From: an uncultured Fidelibacterota bacterium
Lineage (GTDB): Bacteria > Fidelibacterota > Marinisomatia > Marinisomatales > UBA1611
DNA: 64,000 bases
Assembly: GCA_913040915.1 (NCBI GenBank)
Contig: CAJWHW010000004.1
Location: 1 to 64,000, forward strand
Direction: 5' to 3'
Position numbers and translations under genes: made by a program. Positions 36,555 through 42,058 of this stretch are shown here, piece by piece. The notes beneath the pieces are model-generated. The model was not told the DNA's origin, searched no databases, and saw only the letters and a list, made by a program, of their open reading frames with translations. Position 1 is the stretch's first letter. Each line of letters starts with the position of its first letter.

Positions 36555-37604
36555 TTAATCTTGCATTTTTCTAATCCAATTTTTAACAAGCTCTACACCT
36601 TCTTTATGAACCAGTTTTCTGCCCAGTTCAGGCATCATGATTCCAGGGTCTGTTGATTCTATTCGATAAAGCATTATTGATTTATCTGGATGCCTTGGTA
36701 CAATGGTGTATTTCATATCACCCGAGCCCCGTCCTGCTGCAATAGGTGGTTTCATGATCCCTAATTTTGTTGGATCAGTTTCTTCAACATTCAAAAATAA
36801 ACCTGATGTTTCTCCTGGAGCACCAAACCGATGGCAATGGGCACAGTTAATATCAATCCAGGCCCGCGCTCGTTCAGCAACAGTTCCATCTTCGTGATTA
36901 TCATAATCGGGCGTATAAGGCAATTCAGAAATTGGAGGTAGCCCTTTTATCATATCTAATTCTGACCATTTCTGTAGTTGATTCATTATCTCATTCCCAT
37001 AATCATAGTCATTATTTAGTAGTCTTACTTTTGGTCCAATAGGTACCATTTTATTGTGACTGACATGACAACCTTTACATTGATTGAAGTTGGGGACACT
37101 ATATTTAAAATTGACTTGTTCGCCTGCAAAATTAGTAAATGACACATCCATTCTGTCACCGGCAATTTCTAAGAATGCATCTGACTGCTCTTCATCCCAA
37201 ATATAGGGGAAGCCCATCCAGCCATCGGGAGTATGAATAAGTAGCCTTGTCTCCATGAGACGAATATTTTCTTCAGGATATCTTAAATCAGCAGGGAAAT
37301 AAAATGTTTTAATCAGTATGGACTCAATTGGAAAATCAAAGGAACCGTCTACTTGGTAGATTAATTGTTCACCGGCTGGTAAAACAATAAATCTAGATTT
37401 TAGAGCATAATCAGAAAATAATTGAGCTGATATATTATATGGGACTATGCCATCTGCTGGCTGGTGTTGTGCTATCCGTCCTTCAAAGAAATTATAATCA
37501 GATAATTTAGGCTTTGCATATTTAAGTGGACTTATTCCAGAAAGAAGGGAAAATAGAATAAGAGAAAAAGCAAAGCGATGCACTTTTCTCAAAAAAATAA
37601 TCAT
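36555..37604 (-). CDS. SO2930-like diheme c-type cytochrome
   Basis: Two CxxCH motifs (CKGCH, CAHCH), LFSDYA.K.R, ETRLL, MMPELG; paired with a beta-helix gene. Confidence 0.8.
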   Translation of the reverse strand: MIIFLRKVHRFAFSLILFSLLSGISPLKYAKPKLSDYNFFEGRIAQHQPADGIVPYNISAQLFSDYALKSRFIVLPAGEQLIYQVDGSFDFPIESILIKTFYFPADLRYPEENIRLMETRLLIHTPDGWMGFPYIWDEEQSDAFLEIAGDRMDVSFTNFAGEQVNFKYSVPNFNQCKGCHVSHNKMVPIGPKVRLLNNDYDYGNEIMNQLQKWSELDMIKGLPPISELPYTPDYDNHEDGTVAERARAWIDINCAHCHRFGAPGETSGLFLNVEETDPTKLGIMKPPIAAGRGSGDMKYTIVPRHPDKSIMLYRIESTDPGIMMPELGRKLVHKEGVELVKNWIRKMQD

Positions 37605-38788
37605 TTTTTTATTTCTAAGATCAATTGGTGTTCACTACCACAATGATGCGGAGATAGATCTTCCGAAAAATTAGAAATAAATGGTGAATACCATTCTTTA
37701 AAATTGTGTTCTATGTCTAGATTTGTAAATCTAGCGCGCCCATTATTTTGAATACATAGTCCTGCTGTTATTTTTGGATCTTGCATACCATCATAAATAA
37801 TATCTGGTATGTTCCTTCCGTATTTAATTGCTAATAATTTTCCAATGTCATAATCTAAGGTGGGGAATCCTGGCCATCGCTCATAAACATTATTATATAT
37901 ATGAATATCTGCTGTGTAAGGATTATATAGAGAATCCTTAATTGTTTCTTCTGTCATGAAATAACTGACCACACCAGTTCCTACACTTTTATTATTTCGA
38001 ATTGTATTCCGGTAAATATATATATCTCTACAGGCTAAAATCATAATTCCTGTACCCGGGAGTACTTTTCCAACAATATTACCCGGGGGTGCGAAATTGA
38101 ATAAATTATTGGATTCAATAATGTTATTAAAAACATGAATATTCCCGCCTTTTTTCTGTATCAGGTCAGGTAAATCAAATACAAGAATACCCCCCGTATT
38201 ATTATAGGTATGATTTTTGTAGACTTTTGCATTATTTGAATTTTCAATTTCAATACCAGCCACATTATCAAAAACAGTGTTATAGCGCACAATGATTTCA
38301 TTAGACTGACCCACATAAATTCCGGCGTCAGAAGCACCGATCGAAAGTGAATGTTCAATTAACACATTATTACATTGCACTGGATATAGTCCATAGGCTC
38401 CATTGGTAGGTTTGGGACCTCCTGTCCATTCTGTTTTTAAGTGACGGAAAACAATTCCATCCGTATATTGAACCTTAATGGCATCACCTTTTGAATCTTG
38501 AACTGTAAAATTTTCCAATGTTATATTTTTGGAATTAGTAATGCTGATGCCTTGCGCTCCTTCTTCTTGATTGGAAAACTGCAGGATGGATTTATCCATG
38601 CCGGATCCACGAATAAACAAATTTTCTTTTCCTTCAATTGATAAAGTACCTAAAATTAGATGGACACCATCCGGCACTGTGATGGTGTCACCGAACTCTG
38701 CTAGAATGAATTGCATTTGCAGTTCTTTTTCCAGATTCGCATAAGCTATGCAAACTAAAAGATGAAGTGATATGGTTAAATGGGTCAT
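37601..38788 (-). CDS. Secreted parallel beta-helix protein
   Basis: GAYGLYPVQC, GASDAGIYVGQS, NVAGIEIENS, NNTGGILVFDLP repeats. Confidence 0.85.
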   Translation of the reverse strand: MTHLTISLHLLVCIAYANLEKELQMQFILAEFGDTITVPDGVHLILGTLSIEGKENLFIRGSGMDKSILQFSNQEEGAQGISITNSKNITLENFTVQDSKGDAIKVQYTDGIVFRHLKTEWTGGPKPTNGAYGLYPVQCNNVLIEHSLSIGASDAGIYVGQSNEIIVRYNTVFDNVAGIEIENSNNAKVYKNHTYNNTGGILVFDLPDLIQKKGGNIHVFNNIIESNNLFNFAPPGNIVGKVLPGTGIMILACRDIYIYRNTIRNNKSVGTGVVSYFMTEETIKDSLYNPYTADIHIYNNVYERWPGFPTLDYDIGKLLAIKYGRNIPDIIYDGMQDPKITAGLCIQNNGRARFTNLDIEHNFKEWYSPFISNFSEDLSPHHCGSEHQLILEIKK

Positions 38789-39617: not shown

Positions 39618-39730
39618 TACATATTTTTATGCTCCAAATAAAACAATAACTATAGGAATTGTAAGTTTCTAGGATAGAGGTTAGAGTTTTAGCATAATGG
39701 TCACTTATTTCTTATTTTATATTTTAGTTA

Positions 39731-39762
39731 TTAATAATAACCTAACATTGTTTTTTTAAAGT
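39731..39762 (+). promoter_or_regulatory. Candidate Pho box plus -10 element upstream of arsC
   Basis: TTAAT(39731)-N6-CTAAC(39742)-N10-TAAAGT(39757); one mismatch to the consensus, identical spacing; AT-rich context. Confidence 0.55.
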
Positions 39763-39780
39763 AAAAATAAAGGAATAGAT

Positions 39781-40134
39781 ATGTCTGAATTCACCCTATA
39801 TCATAATCCAAGGTGAGGGAAAAGCAGGGGAGCCGTGTCGCTCCTCAAAGAAGAAAATATAGATTTCAAAATTATAGAATATTTAAAAACACCCTTAAAT
39901 AAAAAAGAAATCTTATCTATCTCTAAAAAACTGAACCTTCCTCCATCAGGTTTTGTGCGAAAGAATGAAGTAGAATTCAAAGATAATAATTTGAGTGATG
40001 AGCTTGATAATGATGAAACAATGGCAGAAGCAATCGCGAAATTTCCAAAAATTATGCAACGTCCCATTGCTGTTAAAGGCAACCAGGCAGTCATTGGACG
40101 TCCGCCAGAAAATGTTTTAATTTTAATTCGTTGA
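39781..40134 (+). CDS. arsC: Glutaredoxin-type arsenate reductase (ArsC family), probable selenoprotein with Sec12
   Basis: AAGGA RBS at 39770 and ATG at 39781. Reads MSEFTLYHNPR-[TGA 39814-39816]-GKSRGAVSLL in frame with the 39835 ORF. Keeps the VRK, QRPI and GRPPE arginines; 117 aa with readthrough. Confidence 0.88.
39827..39846 (+). promoter_or_regulatory. Bacterial SECIS-like hairpin within arsC
   Basis: GGGGAGC-CGTGTC-GCTCCTC: 7-bp stem (one G-U), starting 10 nt after the UGA, with a GU near the 5' side of the loop; locally GC-rich in an AT-rich gene. Confidence 0.75.
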
Positions 40135-40145
40135 GAGAAAAAAAC

Positions 40146-41255
40146 ATGAAAAAAACATTATTGCTTTTTACCCTGTTTATCATGTGCTGTGAGCCATTCG
40201 TTACCACCTTCCCAGACTCATCTGATGCAGTCATGTATGAAGCTACTGATAAGACCAATGTGGCTTATAGTGGAGAAAATATAAAAGTGATTACATGGAA
40301 CATCCGTTTTGGTGTTGGACGTTTTCCATTCTTTGGCGATTCCTGTGGTGATAGTGTTATTTTAGATGATGGTTCCATTGAAAAAATAATGTCTAACATA
40401 GCAGACTCCATTAATGCTATGAATGCTGATATTGTGTTGTTGCAGGAAGTGGATGTATCATCGAAAAGAACAGGCTACATAGATCAGGTTCAATATCTTT
40501 TGGACAATACCCACATGAATTATGGGTGTTACGCTTCCATGTGGAAGGCCGATTATATACCTAGTGGTGGCATTGGACGTGTTGATGCTGGGAATGCTAT
40601 TTTATCAAAATATAAACTTACAGATGCAGAACGAATCCAACTTAGGCTAAGAACAGATCAGGACGAGTTGATTCAGTATTTTTATTTAAGACGTAATATA
40701 TTAAAAGCAAAGGTCCCTGAATTATCACAAGGAGGAAAATCTTTTTATGCTGTGGATATCCATGCTACAGCTTTTGCAACAGATGATACCAAACAGCAGC
40801 ACATTGATAAATATGTTCAAACTCTAGCAACTATTCATAATAATGGTGATTATTTTGTTACCGGAGGTGATCTCAATTCTGTGCCACCTGGATCGGTTAC
40901 CGATTTTTGTGAAAGTGATATGTGTGAAGGAGATGATTACCACACTGAAGGTGCTGAAGAATATCATAAAGAGGGGAGCTATTTCGAAAACTTTGATGGT
41001 GAACCTGATCTGTTGCTTCCGCTTTATAACTCTTACAATGCGGCTATCGATTCGGCAGATGCAAATCTTCCTGGTCATTTTACCCATGGCCCGAGTACCA
41101 GTTATGAAATTAATAATATTAAATATGATAGAAAATTGGACTATCTTTTTACGAATAAAACTTGGGTAGATGGCGCATCCAGAACGCACCAAGCAGCCTG
41201 GGCACTAAGTGATCATATGCCGGTTAGCTCAATTATAAATATGGGAGGTGATTAA
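40146..41255 (+). CDS. Endonuclease/exonuclease/phosphatase (EEP) family lipoprotein
   Basis: Lipoprotein-like signal MKKTLLLFTLFIMCC; TWNI, LQEVD, GGDLN, LDYLF, SDH.P motifs. TTG at 40131 is an alternative start. Confidence 0.88.
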   Translation: MKKTLLLFTLFIMCCEPFVTTFPDSSDAVMYEATDKTNVAYSGENIKVITWNIRFGVGRFPFFGDSCGDSVILDDGSIEKIMSNIADSINAMNADIVLLQEVDVSSKRTGYIDQVQYLLDNTHMNYGCYASMWKADYIPSGGIGRVDAGNAILSKYKLTDAERIQLRLRTDQDELIQYFYLRRNILKAKVPELSQGGKSFYAVDIHATAFATDDTKQQHIDKYVQTLATIHNNGDYFVTGGDLNSVPPGSVTDFCESDMCEGDDYHTEGAEEYHKEGSYFENFDGEPDLLLPLYNSYNAAIDSADANLPGHFTHGPSTSYEINNIKYDRKLDYLFTNKTWVDGASRTHQAAWALSDHMPVSSIINMGGD

Positions 41256-42058
41256 TGGGCCGTATCATTTCTTCTATACTTCTTTCCTGTTATCTTATTG
41301 CAGAAACCAAAATTTGGGATTCCCATTCTGCTTACTTGCTTCCTCAAAAACGATGGGAAATAGGTTTGTTTCAGCCATTTAGATATGGCTATTCAGATAA
41401 ATTGGAATATAGTGTATATCCATTATGGTTTTTTGTCATGCCTAATATATCTTTGAAAAAGCCTTACAAGCCAATTGGCAGTTTCACAAGTGCATTTCAA
41501 TCTTCCTTGTTTTATCCAACGCCTTTTCTCAATATGATTGCTAAGAAAGATATTTTGGGTTTCATTTCTCCAGAATTTCAAATTCCACCCATGCTTGGTC
41601 TTTCTGGTACATTCCTTATATCTAATAATATAGCTGGGGTGGATTTAACTGTAAATGGTGGTTTAGACTTAGGCCTAGTGATGGGTGATTTGGATTATCG
41701 CTCCACTATTGATCTGCCCCTCGTGTATCATCGTTTGGGCGTGTATTACAACAATTGGGGAATGCATATGGGATTAGATATACAGAAAAGTATTTCATCA
41801 ATGATAGAAATTTTAGTTGATATTGATTACAGACTATTGCCTGAATTTCCTTTAAAACAGTTAGGAAAGAATTATTCTATAGAACATAAGCTTATTCTTA
41901 GTTGGAGAAAATCAGATCACTTCCGGTTAATAACCGGTTATAAATTTGTTATGGGAGAGTTTCCTTACGGTTCCGATATGCGATTACTACCCTATATACC
42001 CTTAGTTGAACGATGGGTACCCATAATTGAATTACAATGGGCTGGGAGAAAAAAATAA
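41255..42058 (+). CDS. Exported hypothetical protein, possibly an outer-membrane beta-barrel
   Basis: Signal peptide, alternating aromatic/glycine strands, terminal IELQW; TAATG coupling to the EEP gene. Confidence 0.55.
   Translation: MGRIISSILLSCYLIAETKIWDSHSAYLLPQKRWEIGLFQPFRYGYSDKLEYSVYPLWFFVMPNISLKKPYKPIGSFTSAFQSSLFYPTPFLNMIAKKDILGFISPEFQIPPMLGLSGTFLISNNIAGVDLTVNGGLDLGLVMGDLDYRSTIDLPLVYHRLGVYYNNWGMHMGLDIQKSISSMIEILVDIDYRLLPEFPLKQLGKNYSIEHKLILSWRKSDHFRLITGYKFVMGEFPYGSDMRLLPYIPLVERWVPIIELQWAGRKK

Follow-up and report, generated by a model that had tools for sequence, protein, structure and literature searches.

The stretch of DNA analysed here, hereafter the window, comprises 64,000 nt (positions 1 to 64,000 of contig CAJWHW010000004.1) from the 85%-complete genome of an uncultured Fidelibacterota bacterium (G000), and it carries a gene for an ArsC-type reductase, arsC, with a TGA codon in frame at the position of the catalytic cysteine. 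The full coding sequence (CDS) lies at 39781–40134 on the forward strand and consists of 117 codons followed by a TGA stop. Read from the ATG at 39781, the frame gives MSEFTLYHNPR, then TGA at 39814–39816 (+), then GKSRGAVSLL and the remainder of the protein, so that 11 sense codons precede the TGA, which stands as codon 12. A Shine–Dalgarno-like AAGGA (39770–39774, +), read directly from the DNA, is placed 6 nt 5' of the start codon, and most relatives have AGGA or AGGAG at the equivalent position upstream of their arsC. The true stop, a TGA at 40132–40134 (+), has no hairpin after it, and relatives end at this point with TAA, TAG or TGA. Because arsC ends in TGA where its orthologues use any of these three codons, TGA otherwise functions as a stop in this organism.

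The list of open reading frames (ORFs) made with translation table 11 begins arsC at a GTG at 39835 and gives a product of 99 residues, the same start as in the ORF track that had accompanied an initial annotation of this stretch. That annotation had instead placed the start at the ATG at 39781, behind a ribosome-binding site, with an in-frame TGA at 39814 and the rest of the gene undamaged, and the sequence agrees with it exactly: the arsC gene at 39781–40134 is real and intact. A 97-residue antisense ORF (39801–40094, −) falls entirely within arsC, and we take it to be spurious.

A predicted ArsC-type reductase with a complete set of catalytic residues

For profile searches of the 117-residue read-through protein, U12 was entered as C. 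The protein scores 110 bits against the NCBIfam model TIGR00014, 'arsenate reductase (glutaredoxin)', arsC, which has a cut-off of 106.05, and 48.9 bits (cut-off 24; E 8e-13) against Pfam ArsC PF03960. NF041106 is absent among its NCBIfam matches, and the Spx models fall far under their cut-offs. The nearest solved sequences are 3f0i (E 3.5e-19) and 3rdw (E 5.7e-19), both of which are nearer than the ArsC of R773. The R773 enzyme (1i9d) nevertheless aligns with E 6.5e-13 and without a single gap, residues 1–116 on residues 1–116, and because of this gapless alignment codon 12 can be equated with Cys12 of R773 ArsC.

According to the text of the YffB structure paper (PMC3169414), the signature of a classical ArsC is the motif HX3CX3R together with a triad of Arg60, Arg94 and Arg107, and YffB is without the triad. 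The motif is present here as H8-N-P-R-U12-G-K-S-R16, with U in place of C, and the triad is complete and falls on the same residues of 1i9d, its codons lying at 39958–39960 (Arg60), 40060–40062 (Arg94) and 40099–40101 (Arg107), all on the forward strand. Across 28 aligned orthologues, H8, N9, U/C12, K14, S15, R16, R60, R94 and R107 are invariant. The earlier assignment to the glutaredoxin-type ArsC family, with UGA at Cys12, is borne out by the TIGR00014 score, the motif and triad, and the gapless fit to 1i9d. The class of this putative enzyme is well supported by these comparisons, and we are highly confident that the gene encodes a 117-residue reductase of the ArsC type, with a predicted glutaredoxin fold, in which the Cys12 nucleophile has been replaced by selenocysteine (Sec, U).

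The UGA codon is conserved and alternates with cysteine codons

A protein search of 41 related genomes gave 30 with a homologue, the genome of the window itself counted. The codon aligned to Cys12 is TGA in 25 of these 30 homologues and TGT or TGC in the other 5, and both the YHNPR upstream and the KSR downstream of the UGA are conserved among homologues. In a sample of 201 genomes chosen evenly across the phylum, a homologue at E ≤ 1e-15 occurs in 48; 32 of these contain a single in-frame TGA and 16 contain none, and Cys forms are grouped by genus. A rapid tree, of 28 rows and without the loci L021 and L032 (Ns), requires at least two changes between Sec and Cys and has the Cys forms nested among the Sec forms. 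We claim no direction for this exchange, because the tree is rooted only at its midpoint. A separate locus search used two patterns, one of them back-translated from Cys, and so favoured Cys forms; it returned 77 Cys forms (from other phyla) against 2 with TGA, with 1 locus unparsed, and these numbers are not an estimate of frequency.

The TGA is also found outside this assembly. Three further marine metagenome runs, from three studies, have contigs in which positions 39814–39816 are unchanged, and the differences listed for these contigs lie at 39639, 39680, 39900 and 40260, the one at 39900 being a synonymous change in codon 40. Independent metagenome assemblies thus read TGA at 39814, not TGT or TGC, and the two patterns by which the initial annotation had proposed to judge its prediction, alternation of TGA with Cys at codon 12 and covariation in a hairpin behind it, are both seen among the orthologues.

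A SECIS-type hairpin follows the UGA within the coding sequence

Ten nucleotides 3' of the UGA begins a hairpin (39827–39846, +) of the type of a selenocysteine insertion sequence (SECIS), lying within the CDS and composed of a 7-bp stem, GGGGAGC/GCUCCUC, and a 6-nt loop, CGUGUC. It is the minimum-free-energy (MFE) fold of the region. This GC-rich hairpin had been described before at the same place, and we confirm it, with support that comes from comparison and not from the single fold. For the comparison the 25 Sec forms were aligned, without any gaps, and the pairs of the named structure were counted directly. Of the cells of the seven pairs, 82.9% are base-paired, a share that drops to 40–63% once the 3' arm is shifted by 1–3 columns, and none of 500 column shuffles equalled the real alignment in pairing or in covariation score. 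At pair 25/40, 19 forms have GC, 5 AU and 1 GU, and it is never unpaired; at pair 26/39, 11 have GC, 5 AU, 4 GU and 1 UA, and the other 4 do not pair. In 16 of the 25 Sec forms this hairpin is also the MFE structure. Over the hairpin stretch, the GC content is 0.45–0.75 in Sec forms and 0.30–0.45 in the five Cys ones, the genomes themselves having ~36% GC.

The top of the hairpin is constrained at synonymous sites. Codons 18 and 19 (39832–39837, +), which span the stem's upper end and the first bases of the loop, are GCC and GUG in all 19 of the main-clade Sec forms, whereas elsewhere in the same genes conserved Ala, Val, Pro and Gly residues are encoded by 3–4 different codons, with an entropy of 1.3–1.9 bits. 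The six frozen bases, GCCGUG, correspond to the last stem pair and the beginning of the loop, and the invariant GUG of codon 19 is the very codon, at 39835, that gene callers pick as a (false) start. The freeze of codons 18–19 is the strongest single argument for the hairpin.

The genome encodes selenocysteine machinery and other predicted selenoproteins

Of the Sec machinery that the initial annotation had suggested looking for, selA (492.1 bits), a full-length selB (323.6 bits) and selD (385.6 bits) are all present and over their cut-offs, the first two adjacent on contig 16 and the third with an in-frame TGA of its own (SHGSGUACKIG). Other candidates for selenoprotein genes were kept only if a Pfam domain spans the in-frame TGA. 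Such domains were found in two peroxiredoxins (TPGU), an Rdx/SelW-like protein (CxxU, CSMU) and two secreted proteins resembling thioredoxin or AhpC that bear a type IX secretion system sorting tail (WUGPC, YUGTC). These further predicted Sec genes, including that for SelD (GSGUACK), lie at C28:310-762, C35:9853-10350, C35:9621-9875, C32:4995-6485, C8:65907-67466 and C6:66473-67507 (listed as strand −).

Both peroxiredoxin genes have a hairpin after the TGA with an identical CGGGAU loop. Two Cys-rich ORFs with an in-frame TGA and no Pfam match, C18:14577-15767(+) with DPCGU and C20:9425-9775(+) with CDMPUC, are unconfirmed; the former is reminiscent of a 'UshA-like, CxU' family named in the text of the Global Ocean Sampling (GOS) paper (PMC2398784), a likeness that is likewise unconfirmed. 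C61:77-325 is also unconfirmed, with a match to Glyco_hydro_43 under the cut-off only. Genome-wide scans for selenoproteins by hairpin energy and redox motif gave mostly noise, and we set them aside.

Weighing selenocysteine against other readings of the UGA

Several results count against a recoded UGA and are best considered together. As a single fold the hairpin is unexceptional: its MFE of -12.3 kcal/mol corresponds to z = -0.56, and 47 of 200 shuffled sequences fold at least as well. Rfam returned no SECIS or credible family either in the window, at gathering cut-offs, or in 39760–39920 at E ≤ 10. RNAalifold gave no consensus structure for the full set of 25 Sec forms. The outermost pair, 23/42, is broken in 16 of the 25, for which reason we regard the conserved stem as one of 6 bp. 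A contig from RNA run X18 spans 40289–40447 only and thus lies outside arsC. Four of the 25 Sec forms are without this hairpin and have other hairpins, and a tRNA-Sec was found neither by Rfam nor by ARAGORN in the 85%-complete assembly.

Of the four exceptional Sec forms, L039 has the hairpin AGGAGU-GGUU-ACUCUU near the same position. The other three (L035, L036 and L038) have a hairpin CUGUUG-CGUGA-CAAYGG that begins 24 nt after the UGA and is preceded by a small stem, and the same hairpin occurs in L052 and L064, from metagenome-assembled genomes (MAGs) titled Marinimicrobia and Neomarinimicrobiota. The small preceding stem of this clade covaries at synonymous sites (AGC..CUG versus AGU..CUA). 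Since a loop that starts with CGUG is common to this clade and the main one, the putative SECIS seems to have moved within the CDS in the clade of L035, L036, L038, L052 and L064.

The missing tRNA-Sec probably reflects the state of the assembly. The best Rfam match for it, at 46.3 bits (cut-off 47), is a tRNA-Ser(tga) according to ARAGORN, which finds only 30 tRNAs in the whole assembly and none for SeC, His, Ile or Trp. In relatives, a tRNA-Sec of 90–93 nt scores 58–67 bits in 19 of 24 genomes, including one of the same genus. One flank of the gene in that same-genus genome matches contig C9 of our assembly from position 2161 down to 7, which would place the tRNA-Sec site ~0.8 kb past the end of C9, and the other flank is unmatched in our assembly. 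Because the syntenic site lies beyond the contig end, the absence is probably an assembly gap. The search that the initial annotation had suggested thus finds selA, selB and selD in the assembly itself and tRNA-Sec in most relatives.

Public databases present the gene in a different form. A search of public protein clusters gave 1617 matching representatives at E ≤ 1e-10, and among the best 120 of these, 60 lack the N terminus and measure 96–100 residues, 49 carry W as residue 12 and 11 carry Cys. Among the truncated ones is a 99-residue protein 98% identical to this ArsC, and some of them are named 'arsenate reductase' by the Joint Genome Institute. Those with W at codon 12 usually read the final TGA as W too. 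The initial annotation had warned that standard annotation would truncate this gene and lose its active site, as has happened to half of these best representatives; the BSepDB paper describes in its text such truncation as a general annotation error for selenoprotein genes (PMC13326102).

These entries embody two of the readings that would dispense with selenocysteine. A nonsense mutation or sequencing error would leave arsC as a pseudogene, or as the source only of the 99-residue product from the GTG at 39835; this is the product that gene callers choose and that the truncated representatives contain, and the unassembled tRNA-Sec is in keeping with it. It is, however, extremely improbable: 25 of 30 relatives share the TGA at this codon, 32 of 48 phylum homologues have one in frame, independent assemblies contain it, the 11 upstream codons with YHNPR and the Shine–Dalgarno-like site are conserved, and a product that started at residue 19 would be without H8, U12 and R16. 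The W-reading representatives would fit a UGA that acts as a sense codon for Trp or Gly, either under an alternative code or through near-cognate read-through without SelB. But those translations also pass through the terminal TGA as W into sequence that is not conserved, and arsC and several orthologues stop at TGA where others use TAA or TAG. The codon moreover aligns with the catalytic Cys rather than with Trp or Gly, normal long table-11 ORFs surround the gene, the genome has dedicated Sec machinery and the hairpin is under constraint, all of which makes a sense codon very unlikely. A further reading concerns the hairpin, which might act as an intrinsic terminator on the minus strand, or might follow simply from conservation of the peptide GAVSLL. 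A consensus scan does give a terminator-like minus-strand site at 39844–39829, and the stem does lie within conserved codons, but no minus-strand gene ends nearby, the Cys forms are without the hairpin, and the frozen GCC GUG (19/19) and the covarying pairs 25/40 and 26/39 go beyond protein constraint; we hold a hairpin that is not a SECIS to be very improbable. On the evidence given with each, we reject the pseudogene, the alternative genetic code and the minus-strand terminator.

Taken with the conserved alternation of TGA and Cys, the covarying hairpin and the Sec machinery, this leaves the prediction made in the initial annotation, that the UGA encodes selenocysteine, in place. We consider arsC very probably a genuine Sec-encoding gene, at whose UGA selenocysteine would be inserted.

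Genomic neighbourhood and possible physiological roles

A gene of the endonuclease/exonuclease/phosphatase (EEP) family with a lipoprotein-like signal (40146–41255, +; PF03372, E 1.9e-16) starts 11 nt downstream of the arsC stop and is followed by an ORF of 267 residues, the two together spanning 40146–42058 (+). The order arsC–EEP–orf267 is kept in 20 of the 29 loci of relatives, and the EEP protein is 65–78% identical in the six top matches listed, which exceeds the conservation of ArsC. It has no sequence match in the PDB, and it matches only a generic NCBIfam family and generic EEP Atlas clusters. We treat the EEP gene as a conserved neighbour, for which a part in the mechanism is not shown. 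Other neighbours of arsC encode endonuclease V (nfi) and an M23 peptidase. Further upstream in the window, a gene at 36555–37604 (−) encodes a diheme c-type cytochrome of the SO2930 family (TIGR03806, 396.7 bits), and the next ORF to it, at 37601–38788 (−), encodes a beta-helix/NosD-like protein.

The genomic context is at odds with a plain role in arsenate detoxification. There is no ars operon around arsC. ACR3, ArsB, ArsM, ArsP and a MIP channel were not found in the 85%-complete genome, in a search that did not extend to exporters of the major facilitator superfamily (MFS) type, and of 16 family genomes none has ACR3 over the cut-off and one has ArsB. The genome encodes two glutaredoxins, and gshB remains under its cut-off (75 bits versus 299). 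The protein itself scores 62.7 bits against NF007456, the model for the E. coli-type ArsC proper, for which 242 are needed. As no arsenite-disposal gene was found, in a search outside which MFS-type exporters lie, the role of Sec-ArsC is a matter of inference, and arsenate as its true substrate is less certain than its enzyme class.

The protein could therefore be a genuine selenoprotein of the ArsC fold with a role other than arsenate detoxification, such as the reduction of another substrate or that of a general selenol/thiol reductase, in which it possibly acts with the EEP lipoprotein. The lack of efflux and methylation genes and of an ars operon, in whose place the arsC–EEP–orf267 order is kept, would suit such a role, as would the shortfall against NF007456 and the greater nearness of 3f0i and 3rdw (the latter a 'putative arsenate reductase') than of R773 ArsC. 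On the other hand, the arsenate-binding set, HX3UX3R with Arg60, Arg94 and Arg107, is invariant and separates classical ArsC from proteins of the YffB type, the TIGR00014 cut-off is passed, and the missing genes were sought in an incomplete genome with MFS-type exporters outside the search. We think a different role possible, though on balance unlikely. Because Sec-ArsC is kept in most genomes, and beside the gene for a secreted, phosphoesterase-like EEP lipoprotein and orf267, without a recognisable exporter, methylase or channel, we also put forward tentatively, and with slightly more reserve, that the Sec-ArsC of this Marinimicrobia/SAR406-related lineage may work outside arsenic-efflux resistance, either in a different reduction that relies on its selenol or on arsenate that is taken up as a by-product of phosphate scavenging.

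Discussion

The arsC described here is a plain member of the known family of UxxS Sec-arsenate reductases (here U-G-K-S), a family already found in ocean metagenomes in 2005. The initial annotation had rightly said that the class is not new. In the text of the paper by Zhang, Fomenko and Gladyshev (2005), a Sec arsenate reductase with UxxS (COG1393) is reported from 14 Sargasso Sea sequences, together with a predicted SECIS (PMC1088965); in that of the GOS analysis by Zhang and Gladyshev (2008), the family appears as 'ArsC 1, pfam03960, UxxS, 77 sequences' (PMC2398784); and Sec-ArsC is listed with TIGR00014 in the text of reviews of 2022 and 2026 (PMC9312934, PMC13188914). The protein shares with ArsC 1 the Pfam and TIGR family, the UxxS motif, Sec on the catalytic Cys and the marine source, and in both a stem-loop with a small G-containing apical loop stands just 3' of the UGA. 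We see no substantive difference from that family, in a comparison with the papers' text rather than their figures and supplements. What is added here is a lineage with Marinimicrobia/SAR406 MAG relatives, the frozen GCC GUG apex, a second type of hairpin and the finding that the arsenite-disposal genes searched for were not found. A full-text literature search yielded no paper linking the Sec-ArsC family to Marinimicrobia, which is a weak negative, with supplements and subscription journals lying outside it.

The relation to better-studied proteins is one of shared residues and different context. H8, position 12, R16, R60, R94 and R107 coincide with those of the R773 and E. coli ArsC (1i9d, 1j9b), but the nucleophile is Sec instead of Cys12, the protein has 117 residues instead of 141 and is without the C-terminal extension, and no ars operon is present. 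3f0i ('Arsenate reductase') and 3rdw ('Putative arsenate reductase') are of similar length (119–121 residues) and share YHNP(R/K)C(S)KSR, but carry Cys rather than Sec. 'Arsenate reductase 2' (UxxC, cd03032, NF041106) belongs to the same Pfam superfamily and has the same thioredoxin-like fold, and differs in having UxxC where this protein has UxxS. The YffB and Spx branches of PF03960 are also in the superfamily; going by the YffB structure paper's text (PMC3169414), YffB is without the arginine triad that is present here. As with the SECIS of E. coli fdhF, described in the text of the Sargasso Sea paper (PMC1088965), the stem-loop lies in the CDS directly 3' of the UGA, and its small apical loop contains G and U; the sequence is unrelated, however, the stem, at 7 bp, is short, the loop has 6 nt, and a bulged U is not evident.

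By analogy with these systems, the UGA at 39814 would be recoded by SelB, which together with Sec-tRNA(Sec) may bind the apical hairpin at 39827–39846, with its invariant CGUG, and would bring Sec to the ribosome at this codon where release factor 2 would otherwise act. At 40132, where no hairpin follows the UGA, translation would terminate. In the finished enzyme, Arg60, Arg94 and Arg107 would hold arsenate while the selenolate of U12 attacks it, presumably as in R773 ArsC, and a thiol, which in the model enzyme is glutathione or glutaredoxin, might then resolve the arsenate adduct and release arsenite. SelB binding and Sec insertion are proposed here by likeness to known SECIS systems, and the arsenate substrate and thiol reductant are modelled on the R773 enzyme.

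One functional point of some reach is that this lineage retains Sec-ArsC, yet the arsenite-disposal genes searched for were not found. The finding matters mainly for annotation, as public entries of this gene family are almost always wrong. Because they are truncated or read Trp, metabolic reconstructions of abundant marine bacteria represent the enzyme in a catalytically dead form and undercount selenium dependence. With the Sec form dominant in the lineage (32/48) and synonymous constraint on the SECIS, this arsC also offers a clean natural case for the evolution of a SECIS within a coding sequence and for the exchange of Sec and Cys.

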